This document shows positions 43,066 through 51,160 of a stretch of DNA of 64,000 bases, one piece after another; position 1 is the stretch's first letter; each line of letters opens with the position of its first letter. Below the pieces are notes generated by a model that ran no database searches, was not told where the DNA came from, and saw nothing but the letters and a program-made list of their open reading frames with translations. The stretch lies in assembly GCA_028693645.1 (NCBI GenBank), contig JAQUUY010000001.1, positions 30,318 to 94,317 on the forward strand, in the 5' to 3' direction. This DNA is from Eubacteriales bacterium. GTDB lineage: Bacteria > Bacillota > Clostridia > Peptostreptococcales > Anaerovoracaceae. The position numbers were made by a program, and so were the translations under genes.

Positions 43066-43111
43066 ATAACAAACAAGCGAATTCGATGTTCCGAACAGCG
43101 AGGTGATAGAA

Positions 43112-44248
43112 ATGGAAAAAATTAAGCTTCTAATCATAAGTGAGGATTCGGAATATGCGGTGGCTCTCAGCAGATTACTCAGCATAAAATATGATTGCTT
43201 TCGTATTGACATCAAATCAGGAAAAACGAACACTGCAAGTATCGAAAAATGCAGATCCGCATTCTATGATTTGCTCCTTTATGACAGGTGCGATGAGGCT
43301 TATGAGCAAAGTCTTTTATCTGAAGATCAATCAAAATGTGTATTACTTACAGAGGAAGAATCCTTCTTCAGGAAAGACGAAAATGACGAAGATTCAAATA
43401 ATAAGAAAGATAAAAAACAAGAGCAACTGATTTATAAGTATGCCGGAGCAGACAAAATTGCTTCTGATTTACAGCTGTTTTATATGGAAGCAACGGGAAA
43501 AACGAAAAAAACTACTTTGGGGACGGGGGCGGAGCTAATCTTGTTTTCAGGAGCGGCCGGAAATGTCGGAAAAACAGCGCTCTGCATTGCAACTGCAAGG
43601 GAATTGGCTGAATTTCATAGAAAAAAAGTACTGCTCTTGTCTTTTGAATCCCCCGAATCGTTTGGTTTTTATTTAGACGAAGAAGGGAAAGGTCGAGGGT
43701 TAAATGAATACTTATACTACTTGTTTGCAAAATATAAACAATATTCTCCGATTGATCCCGCTGCCTTTCTGACGCATGATCGATTTGCCGTTGACTACTT
43801 CCGCCCCGGGAACAGTATAAATGAACTCATCGAGCTGAGCCTTGCCGATTTGAGAGATTTATTAGCTTCCGTAGCCAACTTCAAAGCGTATGAATATATT
43901 TGCTGTGATGTGTCTTGTTTCTCATTAAAAAAGTATTTTGAACTCTTATCTTTGGCAGACAGAATCATTCATATCGACGATGGTTCTCCTCTTTCCATTT
44001 ACAAAAATGAGGCGCTGCTGAATGCATACTATTTAGCGACGGAGGAAGAGAATTCTGATCGCCTGATAAGGGTGAGGAACAAATGGCAAGAACGAAAGGC
44101 GTCTTCTGTTGAAAACAATATAGATTTGTTTATCGAATATGATCCGGAAAGCTTTCGAGCGACGACAGTCGGTCTTGAAATCGAAATGGACCGGTGTTTT
44201 GGATTGGGGGTCAAAAAGCTTGCAGAAAAAATCCGAAGACAGATATGA
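43112..44248 (+). CDS. TadZ/CpaE-like pilus assembly protein (receiver-like N-domain plus ParA/MinD-like ATPase domain)
   Basis: 378 aa from ATG 43112 (RBS GAGGTG). The N-terminus KIKLLIISEDSEY...YDLLLYD resembles a receiver fold. The P-loop is FSGAAGNVGKTALC. The gene sits directly before cpaF. Confidence 0.6.
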   Translation: MEKIKLLIISEDSEYAVALSRLLSIKYDCFRIDIKSGKTNTASIEKCRSAFYDLLLYDRCDEAYEQSLLSEDQSKCVLLTEEESFFRKDENDEDSNNKKDKKQEQLIYKYAGADKIASDLQLFYMEATGKTKKTTLGTGAELILFSGAAGNVGKTALCIATARELAEFHRKKVLLLSFESPESFGFYLDEEGKGRGLNEYLYYLFAKYKQYSPIDPAAFLTHDRFAVDYFRPGNSINELIELSLADLRDLLASVANFKAYEYICCDVSCFSLKKYFELLSLADRIIHIDDGSPLSIYKNEALLNAYYLATEEENSDRLIRVRNKWQERKASSVENNIDLFIEYDPESFRATTVGLEIEMDRCFGLGVKKLAEKIRRQI

Positions 44249-45443
44249 TACCGTAAGTACGCTAAAAGAAATAACCGAAAATGTAAGAGCTGTTATCAAC
44301 AGCAAAGATCAAAAATTGACCGATGCGGAAGTACTTGATTTGATCGAAGCCTTTGTTTTAAAAGACAGTAGAACCCAAGTCTGCTCTTATCAAACGAAAG
44401 GTGATGTGATTAGCAGCGTTTTTAATGCAACAAGAAAAGAATTAGACCTTTTACAACCCTATGCCGATGATCGAGAAGTCAGTGAAATCATGGTCAATGG
44501 AATTGAAGGTATTTTTATTGAAAAGAAAGGAAAGATTGAACGTCTTTCGAAGAATTTCGAGACAAAAGAAGAACTAGAAGAAATTATAAGACGTTTGGCC
44601 GGAAAGGTTCATCGAGAGATAAATGAGCTGAACCCCATTGTTGATGCAAGAATGGAAGATGGCTCAAGAATTCATGCCGTTTACAAAAATGTTGCGCTCA
44701 ATGGACCAATTCTAACGATTCGGCGTTTCCCAGAAAAGAAGATTAGTATGAGCGAGCTCATTGAATATGGAAGTATCACAGAGGAAGCGGCTTTGTTTCT
44801 TAAGCAATTAGTCATTGCGGGCTATAATATCTTCATCTCCGGAGGAACCAGCTCAGGGAAAACGACGTTTCTCAATGTGTTGTCGAATTATATTCCCAAA
44901 GAAGAACGTGTCATCGTCATAGAAGATTCAGCGGAGCTTCAGATTATGGAAATAGAAAACCTTGTGCGAATGGAAAGCAGAAATGCAAATGTACAAGGCA
45001 AAGGAGAAGTTTCAATCCGACAATTGATTAAAGCAAGCTTAAGAATGCGTCCGGATCGCATCATTGTTGGTGAAGTGAGAGGGCCGGAAGTCCTTGATAT
45101 GATACAGGCGATGAATACCGGGCATGATGGATCTCTCTCAACCGGCCATGGTAATTCACCGGTTGGGATGCTGACAAGACTTGAAACGATGTATCTGATG
45201 GCAGCAGAATTTCCGATTGAAGCTATCAGAAATCAAATTGCAGAAGCCATTGATATCATTGTGCACCTCGGTAGAACCCCGGACCGTGGAAGAAAAGTTC
45301 TTGAAATCATTGAACTGGCCGGAATCGAAAATGGAAAAATCAGAGTGAATACCTTGTTTTCTTATACGAATGCCGCAGGCTTAAAAGCCACAGGGAACAA
45401 GCTTTCAAATCAAAGCAAACTGGAACGAAAGGGGATGATATAA
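44139..45443 (+). CDS. cpaF: CpaF/TadA family secretion ATPase
   Basis: Walker A GGTSSGKTTFLN, Walker B VIVIEDSAEL, and a His box GHDGSLSTGHGNS. The start is uncertain: ATG 44139 overlaps the upstream gene by 110 nt, and TTG 44220 follows GGGGG. Confidence 0.9.
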   Translation: MIRKAFERRQSVLKSKWTGVLDWGSKSLQKKSEDRYDTVSTLKEITENVRAVINSKDQKLTDAEVLDLIEAFVLKDSRTQVCSYQTKGDVISSVFNATRKELDLLQPYADDREVSEIMVNGIEGIFIEKKGKIERLSKNFETKEELEEIIRRLAGKVHREINELNPIVDARMEDGSRIHAVYKNVALNGPILTIRRFPEKKISMSELIEYGSITEEAALFLKQLVIAGYNIFISGGTSSGKTTFLNVLSNYIPKEERVIVIEDSAELQIMEIENLVRMESRNANVQGKGEVSIRQLIKASLRMRPDRIIVGEVRGPEVLDMIQAMNTGHDGSLSTGHGNSPVGMLTRLETMYLMAAEFPIEAIRNQIAEAIDIIVHLGRTPDRGRKVLEIIELAGIENGKIRVNTLFSYTNAAGLKATGNKLSNQSKLERKGMI

Positions 45444-45445
45444 GG

Positions 45446-46189
45446 ATGCCTACGTATGATCGATACGTGCTTTCCAAACAAGAAAAACTAAGGTACTTTT
45501 GTATCTGTTGCCCGTTGATAAGCGGTATTTCTTATCTGTTTTATCATAGCATTATATTTTGTATTCTCTTGCCGCTCCTTTCGATACCGGGTCAGCGAAA
45601 GTACGAAGCGTACTTGATCAGCCGTCAAAAAAAAGAATTGTCAAAGCAATTCCGAGATCTTCTCTACTCACTCTCTGCTTCTTTTTCCGCATCAAAGCAG
45701 ATGAAAGAGGCATTGAAGGAATCTTTGCCGGTTTTACTACTCCTTTACGGAGAAAATTCACTCTTGATAAAAGAAATATCACAGATTGTCAGAAAAATGG
45801 AAGAAAGTCGTGATTCGGAAGAATCCTTGCTCTCAGATTTCGCAGAAAGAAGCGCCGATGGAGAAATTCAAAGTTTTGTTGATGTCTATCTTATCTGCAG
45901 AAAATCCGGTGGCAATCTGATACAAGTGATTTCAAAAACAGTGGAGGTATTGATTGAAAAACTGGACATCACTCGGGAAATACAAAAGATGACGGCGCAA
46001 AAACGTTTTGAATCAATGATTATCACGGCAATCCCGCTCTTAATGTTGCTCTTTCTTCAATGTTCCAGCCCTGATTTTACTGCCGTGCTTTATGAAACGC
46101 TCGCAGGTCGGCTGTTGATGACCCTTGCACTTTTGGGAACGGTAGTAGCTTCTTGTTGGAGCAGAAAAATTACGGAAATTGACTTTTAG
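45446..46189 (+). CDS. tadB: TadB-like type II secretion system F-family membrane protein
   Basis: 247 aa with an N-terminal TM helix, a cytoplasmic helical T2SSF-like domain and C-terminal TM helices. Lies 2 nt after cpaF. Confidence 0.7.
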   Translation: MPTYDRYVLSKQEKLRYFCICCPLISGISYLFYHSIIFCILLPLLSIPGQRKYEAYLISRQKKELSKQFRDLLYSLSASFSASKQMKEALKESLPVLLLLYGENSLLIKEISQIVRKMEESRDSEESLLSDFAERSADGEIQSFVDVYLICRKSGGNLIQVISKTVEVLIEKLDITREIQKMTAQKRFESMIITAIPLLMLLFLQCSSPDFTAVLYETLAGRLLMTLALLGTVVASCWSRKITEIDF

Positions 46190-46219
46190 CGATATTCTTA
46201 GAAAAAGGGGGAATCTCAA

Positions 46220-47596
46220 TTGCTGAGAAGCAAGGCTTTTATAAAAAGCGGCATTCAATATTTTGAGAAGCTTGATCGATTTTTACCTTTTGATCTCTGC
46301 GGTAAAAAAGAAAAAATGCAGGAATTGTTCGGAAAGCGATATTGGCGAAAAGATACCGAAAGAATCGTCAAGGAAACTCGTCAAAAAACAGCGGGAGCAT
46401 ATCTGCTTCTTATCAGCCTTCTCCTTATTTTGATTTTTTTCTTTGCAATCTCTGCCTTGCAGCAAGGGGAAGAAGTGAAAACCATTTCAAGGCCGGAGTA
46501 TGGTGAACCGGTCAAAACGGAGCGGCTTTTCGCAAGAATGGAATATGACGGAAAAATTTTGGAGAAAGAAACAAAAGTAAAAGTGCTTCCGCAAGTTCGT
46601 TCAGTCCATGCAACGGAAAAAGCACTTGAACAATTTGAACAGGATTTGGAAATCAAAATTCTTGGGAAAAACAAAGATATCAAACACGTGTGCACGGATC
46701 TTTTCCTGTTTACAAAAGAAGAAGGAAGTGATGTCGCTATAGAATGGTTTTCCAATAAGCCGGAGTTACTTTCTCGAGAAGGAAAGGTTGATACGATTTT
46801 AGCCAAGGGGAAAGAACAAAATGTCGAATTAACAGCCGTGTATTCTTTGGGGGAGATAGAGAGAAAAATCACGTTTCCCGTTCATATTACGGATGGAGAG
46901 AAAGCAAATGATAAAACAACTTTAGAAGAGCGTCTGTCAAATGCAATCGAGAATGTTGAAGAAGGGCCGGCGGTCGGAACGCGCTTGACTTTGCCGAAAA
47001 CTCTTGGTGAAGAAGTCAGGATTCGTTGGATTGAAAAGGAAAAGAACCCTTTACCGGAATTGTTGCTGTTGTTCGTTGTTGTTTTTGGAATCATCTATCG
47101 TCTTCGTTATAAAACCGCAGAAAATGAAGTGAAAACGGATCAGAAAGCAATTTTAAATGATCTTCCCGATTTTACGAATAAATTGCTTCTCCTTCTTTCT
47201 GCAGGGCTTGTAAGCGAATCTGCGATTCGGAAAATCACAACTGATTATAGAAAACGGTGTTCAACAAAACAAAAACCCTTGTACGAAGGCTTTTGTGAGA
47301 TTGAACAACGAATGCAGTTGACAAATGCATCGTTTCTAAAAGAATTTAGTGATTTTGCTCAAAAAAGCGGAGTTAGAGAGCTGATTCGTTTGCAGACAAT
47401 CATTTCCGAAAACATGTACATTGGAAACAGTTTGAGTGAAAAACTTGAAACAGAAGCAGCAATGCTTTGGTTTTATAAGAAGAAGAGCGTGGAGGAAAGA
47501 GGGCAACTTGCGGAAACAAAACTCACATTTCCGCTGTTACTTCAGCTCATAATTCTAATGGTGATTACGTTGGCACCTGTGTTTTTGAAGCTTTAG
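46220..47596 (+). CDS. tadC: TadC-like T2SSF-family membrane protein with a large extracytoplasmic insertion
   Basis: 458 aa. TM helix at aa 58-80, a roughly 200-aa soluble domain, TM helix at aa 279-293, then a T2SSF-like helical domain (ILNDLPDFTNKLLLLLSAGL...) and a C-terminal TM helix. TTG start after AGGGGG. Confidence 0.65.
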   Translation: MLRSKAFIKSGIQYFEKLDRFLPFDLCGKKEKMQELFGKRYWRKDTERIVKETRQKTAGAYLLLISLLLILIFFFAISALQQGEEVKTISRPEYGEPVKTERLFARMEYDGKILEKETKVKVLPQVRSVHATEKALEQFEQDLEIKILGKNKDIKHVCTDLFLFTKEEGSDVAIEWFSNKPELLSREGKVDTILAKGKEQNVELTAVYSLGEIERKITFPVHITDGEKANDKTTLEERLSNAIENVEEGPAVGTRLTLPKTLGEEVRIRWIEKEKNPLPELLLLFVVVFGIIYRLRYKTAENEVKTDQKAILNDLPDFTNKLLLLLSAGLVSESAIRKITTDYRKRCSTKQKPLYEGFCEIEQRMQLTNASFLKEFSDFAQKSGVRELIRLQTIISENMYIGNSLSEKLETEAAMLWFYKKKSVEERGQLAETKLTFPLLLQLIILMVITLAPVFLKL

Positions 47597-47605
47597 GACA
47601 TTGCT

Positions 47606-47809
47606 TTGAATAGTAAAATAAGAAGGGAGAAGTACGGACTCGTAGGTACCGTGCATGAAAAAATGATGAAAAACAGCAAAAAAGGAATGGAAATGGTGCA
47701 GGTGGCAATTTTGATTGCTATTGCAGTGGCTTTAGGATTGATTTTCAGAGAGAGGATAATGGACTTTGTTGATGCGACATTTGACGGGCTGTCCTCTTCG
47801 GGATTTTAA
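47606..47809 (+). CDS. flp: Flp-type (type IVb/class III signal) pilin
   Basis: A short basic leader ...NSKKG is followed by MEMVQVAILIAIAVALGLIF and a short tail, giving a mature size of about 40 aa. The start is ambiguous (TTG 47606 or ATG 47663). Confidence 0.7.
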   Translation: MNSKIRREKYGLVGTVHEKMMKNSKKGMEMVQVAILIAIAVALGLIFRERIMDFVDATFDGLSSSGF

Positions 47810-48090
47810 TGAGTTGCTGCTTTCGTTTCTTCTCTCACTGTAAGACTAAAAAAGGAGCGGTTATGATTGAGGCAGCGTTAGTATTACCTCTGTCGATTTT
47901 TCTTATAATGGGGTTATTTACTCTTGCGCTTCATTATCATGAACAAGCAGTGCAACAAACAGAGGAGTATTGTCAAGTGAGACAAGAAGCAAAGGTAGAG
48001 GGAAAAACCGATTTGCGTGAAGCAGAATTTGTTACGAGAATTGATTTCCTGCAAGAAGTGGTCGACGGAAAGGAAAAGAAAAGTGATTAA
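47809..48090 (+). CDS. TadE-like pseudopilin
   Basis: 93 aa. TKKG/AVMIEAALVLPLSIFL matches the TadE N-terminal motif with Glu at +5. TAATG overlap with flp. Confidence 0.65.
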   Translation: MSCCFRFFSHCKTKKGAVMIEAALVLPLSIFLIMGLFTLALHYHEQAVQQTEEYCQVRQEAKVEGKTDLREAEFVTRIDFLQEVVDGKEKKSD

Positions 48091-49414
48091 GAATAACAAA
48101 AAAGGATCGGTACCTGTCTTTTTGGGAACCATCTTGCTTTCTTTTCTTCTCGTAGTAGCGATTTTGATGGAATCAGCAGTCGGTATCGTAGGGAGAGGGT
48201 ATGCAGATGGTGTTTTGAATCTGGCAGGACGTTCGATCCTTTCCGAATATGACAGACATTTGAAGGAAGACTATGGACTGTTTGCTGTTTTGATGGACGC
48301 AGAAGAAGCAGAAAAAAAGCTGACTTATTATTCGAATGAAAGCTTTGACTCTCATTTTGGATATACCGATTTGTTTTCACTTTCTCTCGAAGAGGTGAGG
48401 GTTGATTTTTCAAGTTACCCATTGAGCAATCCCGATCGCCTTGAAAAACAGATTATGGAATACATGGAGTTCCGAATCGTAAGTGAGGGAATCACGGCAC
48501 TTGATCTGTTGGAAAATCCAAAAAAACTTGATTGCTACTGCGATAAAAAAACAGAAGCAAAGAGCAGCGCCTTGAAAGTGGAGCGTGATTTAAAAAATCA
48601 ACAGATAATAAAGGGGCTTCCTTCCCATGTACTCAAAAATGAGTTTGATTTCACTTCGGCTCTTCCTCAGAACTTTAATATGAAGAAACTGCTTCATATT
48701 ACGAAAGATAGCATCAGTTTGAACCTCTATATACTAAAATGTTTTCGCCATCAATTAGATGACGAAGATTGGAACAATACCTTTTTTGCAAACGAGGTCG
48801 AATATATTTTGTGTGGAAGTGAAAGTGACAGTCGAAACAGAACGCTTGTAAAAGCAAGCTTGCTTGTCTTGAGAACCGGAATTGATCTTGCCCATATTTA
48901 CACTGATCCTCTAAAACGCCAAAGTATTTTGACCGTTGCGGCACTTGTTTTCCCAGGAGCCGCTGCTCCGGCGGCAGCAATTTTGATTGCTATCGGATGG
49001 GCCGCAGCAGAAGCGGCGAATGACCTTGGGCGCCTTGCGAAAGGAGATCGTGTCCCTTTATATAAAACGACTGCTGATTGGATGATTGATCTGGACAGTC
49101 TTCTTGAGAAGAAAGAAGAAAAAACAACCATGAAGAGACAAACTGCCGGAATCGTTATTTTGAAACCGGAATCGACAGGTCTTGATTATGAAAATTATTT
49201 ATTCTTGCTACTTTGTTTTAAAAGCAGAGAAACAAAGCTGTTTCGAATTATGGATTTAATACAGATCAACATGAAAGGAAACTATTATTCCGATTTCCTC
49301 CTATCTCATTGTTACGGCGGAATCGATTTTGTTTGCCGTATTGAACGAAAAAACAGCTTCTTGCCATTCGGTTCCTTGCGAAAAGGAGTTTTTTATGAAA
49401 GTCATGTTTACTAA
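48083..49414 (+). CDS. TadG-like pilus-associated protein
   Basis: 443 aa from GTG 48083, which overlaps the upstream stop (GTGATTAA). The N-terminus NKKGSVPVFLGTILLSFLLVVAILMESAV resembles the TadG-type N-terminal helix, followed by a large soluble domain with an internal hydrophobic stretch. Confidence 0.6.
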   Translation: MIKNNKKGSVPVFLGTILLSFLLVVAILMESAVGIVGRGYADGVLNLAGRSILSEYDRHLKEDYGLFAVLMDAEEAEKKLTYYSNESFDSHFGYTDLFSLSLEEVRVDFSSYPLSNPDRLEKQIMEYMEFRIVSEGITALDLLENPKKLDCYCDKKTEAKSSALKVERDLKNQQIIKGLPSHVLKNEFDFTSALPQNFNMKKLLHITKDSISLNLYILKCFRHQLDDEDWNNTFFANEVEYILCGSESDSRNRTLVKASLLVLRTGIDLAHIYTDPLKRQSILTVAALVFPGAAAPAAAILIAIGWAAAEAANDLGRLAKGDRVPLYKTTADWMIDLDSLLEKKEEKTTMKRQTAGIVILKPESTGLDYENYLFLLLCFKSRETKLFRIMDLIQINMKGNYYSDFLLSHCYGGIDFVCRIERKNSFLPFGSLRKGVFYESHVY

Positions 49415-50222
49415 GTGGAGACGAAGAAAAAGGGGATCTGCTATCGTCGAGGCAGCTTTGTTTCTTCCATTTTTCCTTTTGGCTTTGCTTTCTCTGATCC
49501 TAATCATTCGTTTGGTGAGTGTAGAAGGAAGCATGATGGAAATCTGCACAAAAGAAGCGCAGATAGTAGCGAAGGAAGCATATTTAACGAATTTGCCGGA
49601 GATACCCGAGGGAGTTGAAAAAAACATCGTTGGTGGTTTGGCTCATGGGACGCTTATGAAGCTTCGTATACGCCAAGCGGTAGACAGTAAAGAGAAACTG
49701 CCCTTATCGGAGTTGCGGCTGCAGAGTTTCTTCTATTTGTTTTCGGCACATGAGACAGATTCGCTGATACGACCATCATTTACTTACCAAAGCAGCATTC
49801 CTTTGCCGGGCGGATTTGGGCGAACAATTAAATTTAAACGCGTCTTTTTGTTTCGTGCGTTTGTGGGATCTGTCGGCATGAATTCTGCAATGGGTTTTAC
49901 TGAAATGGAAAAAGAAGAAAGCTCCGAGCTGGTATCTATCTTTCCTCGTGCGGGGAAACGGTATCATAAAAAAAATTGCAAGGTAATTACTGTTTATCCG
50001 ATAGAAACCTTATTAACAAATGCAGTACAGCGGAAATACAGTCCATGTTCACTTTGCAAACCAAATGAGAACGCGTTTGGCAGCAAGGTGTATCTTTTTC
50101 CGGAAAGCGGTGAAGTTTTTCATCGTGAAAATTGTGTGCTTGTAAAACGCTATGTGACTGAAATTGAAAAACAGGAAGCAATCAAGAAAGGTTACAGTCC
50201 CTGTAAATTATGCGGAGGATGA
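49395..50222 (+). CDS. TadE-like pseudopilin fused to two C-terminal H-C-C-C zinc-binding modules
   Basis: 275 aa from ATG 49395 (RBS AAAGGAG). RKRG/SAIVEAALFLPFFLL has Glu at +5. The C-terminus carries YHKKNC-x22-YSPCSLC and FHRENC-x22-YSPCKLC. Confidence 0.6.
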   Translation: MKVMFTKWRRRKRGSAIVEAALFLPFFLLALLSLILIIRLVSVEGSMMEICTKEAQIVAKEAYLTNLPEIPEGVEKNIVGGLAHGTLMKLRIRQAVDSKEKLPLSELRLQSFFYLFSAHETDSLIRPSFTYQSSIPLPGGFGRTIKFKRVFLFRAFVGSVGMNSAMGFTEMEKEESSELVSIFPRAGKRYHKKNCKVITVYPIETLLTNAVQRKYSPCSLCKPNENAFGSKVYLFPESGEVFHRENCVLVKRYVTEIEKQEAIKKGYSPCKLCGG

Positions 50223-50223
50223 T

Positions 50224-50943
50224 ATGTTTAAGCTTGAGGAACTAAAGAAAGAAGAAATTGGCGGACGGCTTGTTTTGTCAATCGAAAACACGAAAGACTG
50301 GCCTCCGGTGTATCAGAAGCGAGTCTTGGAAAAAGGTTGCAAAGGGCTTTTGCAAATGACTTTTCTTGAGATCGAAGAGAATTGCAGGATTTACTATCAA
50401 GTGGATTCCTATAAACCATTCACGGATTACTTAGAGAGTTTGTTTTCGAACAAACGCGAACTTCACTCAAATCCAACAAGAGAAATCCTTCGTATTCTGA
50501 TAGATGTGCTGTCTTGTGTCTTAGATGCCGAAGATTGTTTGCTCTTTGTTGAAGCATTCGCCTTTAACAAGGATACCATCTTTGTCCATATTGATACGAA
50601 AGAAGTGCGGCTTGCCTATTTACCAACAACGAAAGCAGGGCAGACCGGCAATCCTTTTTTGAAAGAGCTGATTGAAGCAATCTCCAACCAATATCAGGAG
50701 GAACAATGGCAGTCTTGCGCTCAAGAATTGCTATGTGAAATCGAGCAAAAGAACAAAGGATCTCTTGAACTCATCAAATGGTTTAGAGAGAAAGCTCGAG
50801 ATTTGCATCTTCGTGGTTGGCCAAACGAAGAACTTGAAAGAAGTGTGGAGGGGGAAGTAGATAATTCCTTTGAAATCGCTGTCGATTGCCCAGAAAAAGC
50901 GGAGAAGAAAAGAAGCGTTTTCTCTTTTGATAAAAGAAAATAA
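50224..50943 (+). CDS. hypothetical soluble protein, last gene of the Tad-like operon
   Basis: 239 aa from ATG 50224 (RBS GGAGGA), starting 1 nt after the upstream stop. No TM helix and no motif recognised. Confidence 0.55.
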   Translation: MFKLEELKKEEIGGRLVLSIENTKDWPPVYQKRVLEKGCKGLLQMTFLEIEENCRIYYQVDSYKPFTDYLESLFSNKRELHSNPTREILRILIDVLSCVLDAEDCLLFVEAFAFNKDTIFVHIDTKEVRLAYLPTTKAGQTGNPFLKELIEAISNQYQEEQWQSCAQELLCEIEQKNKGSLELIKWFREKARDLHLRGWPNEELERSVEGEVDNSFEIAVDCPEKAEKKRSVFSFDKRK

Positions 50944-50992: not shown

Positions 50993-51160
50993 CTAACGAT
51001 CAGTTCTGACCTGTCTTCTTTCGTTCTTTTTTCTGTCTCTGCAATCCTTACATCTTTTTGGTTCGTTATCAAAACCTTTTTCCTTGTAGAACTCCTGCTC
51101 ACCTGCTGTAAACACGAATTCTGCGCCGCAATCCTGACATACGAGTGTTTTGTCTTCCAT
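50993..51160 (-). CDS. small zinc-ribbon protein (55 aa), not in the ORF track
   Basis: My translation: MEDKTLVCQDCGAEFVFTAGEQEFYKEKGFDNEPKRCKDCRDRKKNERRQVRTDR. RBS GGAGGA lies 10 nt upstream. CxxC...CxxC motif. Confidence 0.8.
   Translation of the reverse strand: MEDKTLVCQDCGAEFVFTAGEQEFYKEKGFDNEPKRCKDCRDRKKNERRQVRTDR

Follow-up and report, generated by a model that had tools for sequence, protein, structure and literature searches.

A predicted Tad minor pilin with two tandem ADA_N-like zinc modules in anaerobic Clostridia

The stretch analysed here is a 64,000-nt segment of contig JAQUUY010000001.1 (assembly GCA_028693645.1) from an Eubacteriales bacterium of the family Anaerovoracaceae; it is referred to as the window, and all coordinates are window positions, on the + strand unless stated. 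In its Tad/Flp pilus operon, a gene was found to code for a protein combining a TadE-type N-terminus with two small repeats, each bearing one His and three Cys, at the C-terminus. We consider it highly probable, from the sequences of the protein and its relatives, that these repeats are exported, zinc-stabilised ADA_N-like modules carried by a Tad minor pilin. The explanation that best accounts for the whole, and that we regard as probable, is that of a modular Tad minor pilin whose external modules would capture a ligand, likeliest extracellular DNA (eDNA) or a similar phosphodiester polyanion. DNA as the ligand, suggested by domain co-occurrence and by the basic charge of module 1, is put forward more tentatively. 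What is new is the tandem ADA_N-like fusion to a predicted Tad minor pilin, a variant architecture built from known parts.

The tandem modules and their conservation

The two repeats (residues 179–223 and 231–275) could be aligned without gaps, with 16/42 identities (38%, pairwise E=5e-13), and the family profiles of module 1 and module 2 matched each other in hhalign with 98.9% probability (E=1e-17). Each repeat has the layout His-x3-Cys-x22-Cys-x2-Cys. A previous sequence-only reading of the window had pointed to tandem H-C-C-C modules at positions 49938–50219, corresponding to residues 182–275 of the pilin, and these are indeed present as two 45-aa repeats with near-invariant ligands. The pattern it proposed was right, except that the 22 residues it placed ahead of YSPC are the Cys-to-Cys spacing (C195–C218 and C247–C270), Y-S-P included.

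A word-based homologue search retrieved 4 relatives only, all of them keeping both ligand sets, and an exhaustive profile search was needed to recover the full family. The latter covered 1.84 billion representative proteins and returned 1902 relatives at E<1e-3, a number falling to 434 at E<1e-10 and to 170 clusters at E<1e-30, the best 150 relatives being nearly all 240–300 aa long with full-length matches. In the conservation alignment, consisting of 139 sequences with 24–64% identity to the window protein, C218, C221, H243, C247, C270 and C273 are invariant, H191 and C195 are retained in 138 sequences, and the motif F-P-x-x-G-x-x-Y-H, as well as the G-Y ahead of the last Cys pair, is more than 90% conserved. 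Both ligand sets were found in 147 of the 154 relatives examined and both modules in 80/80 genome loci. As far as these alignments tell, the conserved double ligand set is a real, selected feature, far beyond chance. The mean net charge across the 139 relatives is +4.9 for module 1 and +0.5 for module 2, and that of the single-copy modules described below is +3.9.

The pilin part and its predicted topology

The N-terminal signal is, by its residue pattern, of the Flp/TadE class III type. Gly14, at position -1 of the predicted cleavage site, is kept in 130/139 relatives, Glu19 (+5) in 129 (with Asp in 9) and Pro25 in all of them, and the net charge of the leader averages +3.2. A TadE-like N-terminus, as originally proposed, is therefore borne out by these positions and by the synteny of the tad operon. 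Pfam TadE (PF07811) was matched at E<=0.01 in 20 of the 139 relatives, whereas PF07963 (N_methyl, IPR012902) had no match in the pilin and none in a whole-genome search of the host genome. Since the positively charged leader is followed by a prepilin motif, G(-1)/E(+5), an N-in, C-out topology is predicted.

The model obtained with AlphaFold2 (AF2) from the 139-sequence alignment reached a pLDDT of 90.6 and a pTM of 0.70 for the whole protein. It shows a helix at residues 13–65, a second helix at 76–100, three long strands at 104–150 and then two beta-beta-alpha-beta-alpha modules. A pilin-like alpha/beta fold for the body of the protein is strongly supported by this predicted topology.

The Tad operon and the distribution of the family

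The operon encodes, in this order, a ParA/TadZ-like protein, the CpaF ATPase (T2SSE, E=1.6e-50), TadB-like and TadC-like proteins, an Flp1-like pilin, a short TadE-like protein of 93 aa, a DUF5702 (TadG-like) protein (E=4.6e-50), the zinc-module pilin and a DUF6382 protein. The same gene order is repeated around two orthologues (L001 and L002). The start of the pilin gene and the stop of the DUF5702 gene overlap by 20 nt; the ATG at 49395 is a sensible start, giving a product of 275 residues, and the orthologous genes at the same two loci were called alike. No prepilin peptidase gene was found within the operon, and a Peptidase_A24 gene (236-aa open reading frame (ORF), 54.3 bits) lies on another contig (C168) of the same genome, which is 1.68 Mb long and 89% complete.

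Synteny was followed in 80 loci from GTDB species genomes, labelled as Anaerovoracaceae / Eubacteriales Family XIII, Anaerovorax, Mogibacterium, Aminipila, or uncultured 'Oscillospiraceae' or Clostridiales, and many of rumen, gut or digester origin. An orthologue (L042) is also present in a cultivable strain, Anaerovorax odorimutans DSM 5092. A DUF5702 gene is placed directly upstream in 77 of them, the remaining 3 having almost no upstream flank, and genes for Flp (71 loci), TadC (67), TadB (63) and CpaF (61) were also recorded. Among 300 sampled Clostridia genomes, full-length matches clustered in two families, the window's own (4/4) and one other (9/9), and partial matches, covering the N-terminus alone or a single module, were widely scattered. 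No NCBIfam family matched the pilin, and Pfam likewise holds no model of its family. By these searches, the family is widely conserved in anaerobic Clostridia and missing from curated family libraries.

As for the carrier part, 330–530-aa ORFs devoid of zinc modules were matched elsewhere in Clostridia by the start of the profile, its first ~90 positions, which span the TadE-like leader and helix. This suggests that the same pilin module may carry other, larger C-terminal domains in other Clostridial families (e.g. G231:C43, G206:C47 and G257:C1:1554828). A pilus locus considered for comparison, that of TANB77 (PMC11680825), proved to be a different gene cluster.

Probable relationship with the Ada zinc domain

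Profiles of module 1 (40 sequences), module 2 (41 sequences) and the N-termini of Ada/AdaA (14 sequences, E. coli plus 13 Bacillota) were compared by hhalign. Module 2 matched the Ada profile with 90.9% probability (E=1e-6) and with the ligands in register (H243 with C38, C247 with C42, C270 with C69 and C273 with C72), and the single-copy module matched it with 95.9% over 18 columns. Pfam Ada_Zn_binding (PF02805) was recognised at E<=0.01 in 17 of the 139 relatives, the best at E=5.1e-7. The resemblance to Ada-type metal-binding modules noticed at first sight is thus sustained by the profile match of module 2, in addition to a weak, sub-threshold PF02805 match of the window protein. Homology of the two modules to each other and to the single-copy exported module is strongly supported by these sequence comparisons, and a remoter kinship with Ada's zinc domain is probable.

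At the position aligned to Ada Cys38, the ligand is without exception Cys in Ada and His in the modules of the pilin and of the single-copy class. In the 2005 Ada-DNA structure, Cys38 is reportedly the methyl-accepting thiolate. Should this be the case, the replacement of Cys38 by His would imply that suicide demethylation is not conserved here. A recent domain survey names instead Cys69 for Ada (PMC12353581), and the equivalent of Cys69 is conserved in the pilin modules.

The same module on other exported proteins

Fifteen single-module ORFs were fetched from the search of the 300 Clostridia genomes. All of them end in the single module, whose consensus is T-V-Y-I-T-x-x-G-x-K-Y-H-x-x-G-C ... 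G-Y-x-P-C-x-x-C-x-P, and the N-termini hold lipoboxes (L-S-G-C, F-A-G-C), signal peptides or membrane anchors. Module 2 and module 1 of the pilin matched the profile of this single-copy module at 99.2% and 98.3%, respectively. Four of the 15 ORFs have metallo-beta-lactamase (MBL) folds matching the C-terminal nuclease part of ComEC/Rec2 (TIGR00361, E~1e-42); further partners are six ChW repeats, in one 1085-aa protein, and Cu_amine_oxidN1, and the small lipoproteins of the set show a Pro/Thr-rich spacer with no further domain.

Two region-restricted searches for carriers were performed over 5.8 billion proteins. One seed gave 114 clusters of small carriers, all unnamed, with staphylococcal-type nuclease (SNase) domains in 3, Cu_amine_oxidN1 in 7 and a precomputed PF02805 assignment in some, SH3-type domains being also among the partners in this census. 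The larger carriers amounted to 32, of which 27 were of MBL/ComEC type, 4 had SNase domains and 1 was without Pfam match; several of the MBL proteins are named 'ComEC/Rec2 family competence protein' and one of the SNase proteins micrococcal nuclease. The link with SNase appears in both searches. Similar small domains on secreted Firmicute proteins, which the sequence-only reading had called to mind, were hence encountered on lipoproteins, on ComEC-like MBL and SNase nucleases and on ChW proteins.

Some traits of the carriers were recorded apart. The MBL carriers (L019, L020, L027, L031 and L032) are free-standing, membrane-anchored or secreted, with TIGR00361 at ~437–663 and one terminal module each. 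In a large set of Clostridial lipoproteins of ~100–270 aa (e.g. L018, L022 and L032), a lipobox is followed by a Pro/Thr/Ser-rich spacer and then by a single ADA_N-like module at the C-terminus. A six-frame search of the host genome (89% complete) with the 94-aa C-terminus at E<=10 found no carrier other than the pilin gene itself; several single-module proteins per genome are seen in many other Clostridia.

No paper other than the ECOD one cited above came out of keyword searches of the literature on DUF5702 with TadE and on secreted Ada-like zinc modules. It describes 'ADA_N-like domains' (an ECOD X-group, Pei et al. 2025) as remote homologues of the Ada zinc domain, mostly located at the C-termini of Gram-positive proteins and secreted (PMC12353581). 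The examples reported there are C. difficile Cwp27 (with CW_binding_2), a signal-peptide-bearing MBL protein of the ComEC/Rec2 family, M. tuberculosis ArfC and an LGFP-repeat protein. The single-copy module described here is, on its sequence and on the published description, a member of this class. A zinc module on an exported protein, at first held to be unexpected, is thus typical of an ADA_N-like domain of secreted Gram-positive proteins (PMC12353581).

Proposed role of the modules

In the mechanism that we favour, the leader would be cleaved by the A24 prepilin peptidase encoded elsewhere in the genome, and the pilin would then be built into the pilus, likeliest in a tip/priming complex with the short TadE-like and DUF5702 proteins. 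Both modules would be exposed on the cell exterior, with a single structural Zn2+ in the fold of each, and their task would be the capture of a ligand, eDNA or a similar phosphodiester polyanion being the likeliest. In this way the pilus might attach cells to the eDNA of biofilms or pass DNA on to ComEA/ComEC.

DNA or a comparable polyanion is favoured because the module is joined to two unrelated families of secreted nucleases (ComEC-type MBL and staphylococcal-type), because the domain of Ada binds the DNA backbone and because module 1 and the single modules are basic. It is also favoured because precedents exist, namely the DNA-binding minor pilins ComP of Neisseria (PMC4906244), FimT of Legionella (PMC8897410) and ComZ of Thermus (PMC6561018), and the requirement of Tad genes for transformation in Micrococcus luteus (PMC4322843).

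Several results weigh against this explanation. The census of nucleases was seeded with one lipoprotein and one MBL protein and is biased to near relatives of these seeds. Module 2 is near neutral, and the module also accompanies wall-binding domains, namely ChW in our set and CW_binding_2 and LGFP in PMC12353581, with which a wall-polymer ligand fits equally well. As for the domain assignments, the matches of the window protein to PF02805 (19.7 vs 23 bits, E=8.6e-4) and to PF07811 (residues 14–43, 15.3 vs 22.9 bits) are both below the Pfam cut-off. Module 1 matched the Ada profile at 54.5% and out of ligand register, so that its putative homology to Ada rests on transitivity via module 2. Foldseek comparison of the C-terminal model with the PDB found nothing significant and no Ada, the best match being a RING-H2 domain at E=0.4, and only chance matches in the PDB came from phmmer/hmmsearch, whether the query was the C-terminus, its profile or the profile of the full family. 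Ada residues 1–76 form a four-stranded sheet with short helices. The full-length model likewise had no significant match in the PDB by Foldseek, and for this reason the term 'pilin-like fold' refers to the topology.

Alternative explanations

The modules may be zinc-stabilised structural or protein/glycan-binding units having no dealings with nucleic acids, an explanation that we consider rather unlikely, though ahead of the other alternatives. They would then hold together the minor-pilin complex (DUF5702 and short TadE-like proteins) or bind a host or environmental surface, e.g. mucin or polysaccharide, with zinc standing in for disulfides, which are unreliable outside the cell for strict anaerobes. 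It fits with this that modular pilins usually carry modules for protein or glycan adhesion (PMC8179133, PMC9934059), that the gene is paired with a DUF5702 gene in nearly all of the loci, that module 2 is not basic, and that AF2 packs the modules with moderate overall confidence. Moreover, the authors who defined the ADA_N-like domains assign them no function (PMC12353581). What a structural or adhesive role leaves unexplained is the recurrence of the module on secreted MBL/ComEC-type and SNase nucleases, as well as its homology to a domain that binds the DNA backbone.

Binding of anionic wall polymers (teichoic acids, peptidoglycan-linked), by which the modules would hold the pilus, or its priming complex, in the thick wall or steer it across, comparably to a wall-retention tag on lipoproteins and exo-enzymes, is improbable in our estimate. 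Such a role agrees with the partners of the module in our searches (ChW repeats, SH3-type domains and Cu_amine_oxidN1), with the CW_binding_2 and LGFP partners, with the basic character of the single modules and of module 1, and with the make-up of the small lipoproteins, in which a lipobox and a Pro/Thr-rich spacer are followed by the module. A second anchor would however be needless on proteins already having wall-binding repeats, and a distal C-terminal pilin module is expected to move with the filament, away from the wall.

Lack of export, with the helix as a plain membrane anchor and the modules facing the cytoplasm as nucleic-acid-binding or regulatory units, or as an Ada-like sensor of alkylated DNA and methyl acceptor, had been left open by the sequence-only reading and is highly improbable: Cys-rich zinc sites are typical of the cytoplasm, where Ada itself resides, and sensing of alkylated DNA is speculated on in PMC12353581, but the positive leader ahead of the G(-1)/E(+5) motif predicts a C-out topology, homologous modules lie behind lipoboxes and signal peptides, and the ligand aligned to Ada Cys38 is always His, even though the Cys69 equivalent is conserved.

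The competence-pilus question

A more far-reaching version of the DNA-capture explanation, in which the Tad/Flp pilus would be a DNA-capturing filament and the tandem modules its DNA receptor feeding ComEA/ComEC, appears unlikely to us. ComEC, a ComEA-like gene and DprA are present in 5/5 genomes of the window's family (G000, G001, G077 and G163 among them), 4 of which are without N_methyl prepilins and have the Tad CpaF as sole strong match to the T2SSE family. In a second, Anaerovoracaceae-like, family of carriers, N_methyl pilins are present in 4/9 genomes and absent from 5/9. The argument that Tad, being the only type IV filament, must be the competence pilus was rejected, and this too counts against DNA capture, as carriers do not stand out by this pattern: N_methyl prepilins occur in 5/13 carrier genomes and in 146/294 sampled Clostridia, about half of which lack them. 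Their absence is accordingly not counted as support. If this version were true, Tad would be a competence pilus in lineages without ComG or a type IVa pilus, and the function of the ADA_N-like class would be that of an extracellular clamp of the DNA backbone.

Coordinates and neighbouring features

The features of the gene and the extent of the operon are collected in Table 1. Apart from them, the TadC-like platform protein (46220–47596) shows an aBig_2 ('atrophied bacterial Ig') domain at residues 140–223, between transmembrane parts, and a match to aBig_2 is also faintly seen at the orthologous loci L001 and L002. Just past the operon, a 55-aa CxxC...CxxC protein is encoded on the minus strand (50993–51160), and its equivalent at the orthologous loci matches zf_Tbcl (Pfam).

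Table 1. Window positions of the zinc-module pilin gene, its parts and its operon
Feature	Positions	Strand	Remarks
Tad/Flp pilus operon	43103..50943	+	nine genes, zinc-module pilin eighth; Pfam matches
Ribosome-binding site AAAGGAG	49382..49388	+	6 nt 5' of the ATG; read from sequence
Zinc-module pilin gene (P0001)	49395..50222	+	predicted modular TadE-type minor pilin, 275 aa
Basic leader peptide, residues 1-14	49395..49436	+	ends at Gly14, predicted prepilin-peptidase cleavage site
Hydrophobic alpha-1N segment, residues 15-40	49437..49514	+	Glu19 at +5, Pro25
Pilin-like body, residues 41-165	49515..49889	+	alpha-1 remainder, second helix 76-100, three long beta-strands 104-150; AF2
Acidic linker, residues 166-178	49890..49928	+	mean net charge -2.9, 139 relatives
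ADA_N-like module 1, residues 179-223	49929..50063	+	basic
Module 1 predicted ligands	H191 49965-49967; C195 49977-49979; C218 50046-50048; C221 50055-50057	+	
ADA_N-like module 2, residues 231-275	50085..50219	+	
Module 2 predicted ligands	H243 50121-50123; C247 50133-50135; C270 50202-50204; C273 50211-50213	+	

Significance

Hardly any work is known to us on Tad pili in Gram-positive anaerobes. The family provides a concrete handle on them, namely a conserved minor pilin whose sole add-on is a pair of small zinc modules recurring on secreted nucleases. DNA binding by the modules would give a function to the ADA_N-like class, for which none was offered when it was described in 2025. It would also carry the 'modular pilin' principle over from type IVa to type IVc pili and point to a route of eDNA attachment or DNA uptake in anaerobes that abound in gut and rumen (Anaerovoracaceae, Mogibacterium and their relatives). 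Without DNA binding, the family would still serve as a clear case of Cys3His zinc sites lying outside the cytoplasm in anaerobes. What results is a prediction of function for both an orphan domain and the Tad pili of Gram-positive bacteria.

Comparison with known systems

The TadE/TadF pseudopilins (PF07811) share with the window protein the prepilin-like leader with G(-1)/E(+5), the hydrophobic helix and the position after Flp in the tad operon, and differ from it by lacking the 110-aa C-terminal extension with the two predicted zinc modules.

With the N-terminal zinc domain of E. coli Ada (PF02805; PDB 1EYF and 1U8B), the pilin modules have in common the X-x3-C ... C-x2-C layout and the G-[YF]-x-P-C-x-x-C motif. 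Unlike in Ada, their first ligand is His instead of Cys, their length is ~45 aa versus ~75 aa, and they are C-terminal, predicted to be extracytoplasmic and not followed or preceded by helix-turn-helix or methyltransferase domains. The likeness to the ADA_N-like class, for which Cwp27 and Q187P0 were compared by description, lies in a small, Ada-related, C-terminal zinc module on exported proteins; what sets the window protein apart from the class as presented there (PMC12353581) is that the module is tandem-duplicated and grafted onto a predicted Tad minor pilin.

The concept of modular pilins has been established for type IVa pilins with the N_methyl signal (IPR012902), to which the published census was restricted (PMC8179133). 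PilB, with its vWA module, and PilC, with its lectin module, of Streptococcus sanguinis (PMC8179133, PMC9934059) resemble the window protein in having a pilin carrier, a grafted module, a short linker and a probable exposure at the tip. As is characteristic of modular pilins, the added domain occurs here also outside pilus biology, on nucleases, lipoproteins and wall proteins, and is joined by a short linker (residues 166–178). The S. sanguinis proteins bear the type IVa signal, whereas the window protein is of Tad/TadE type and bears a pair of zinc modules. Lastly, ComP, FimT and ComZ would be alike in the proposed role, that of a low-abundance pilin letting the filament bind DNA, with no kinship in sequence to be expected; these pilins bind DNA by electropositive surfaces of the pilin fold or by a beta-solenoid, and the window protein would do so by zinc modules.

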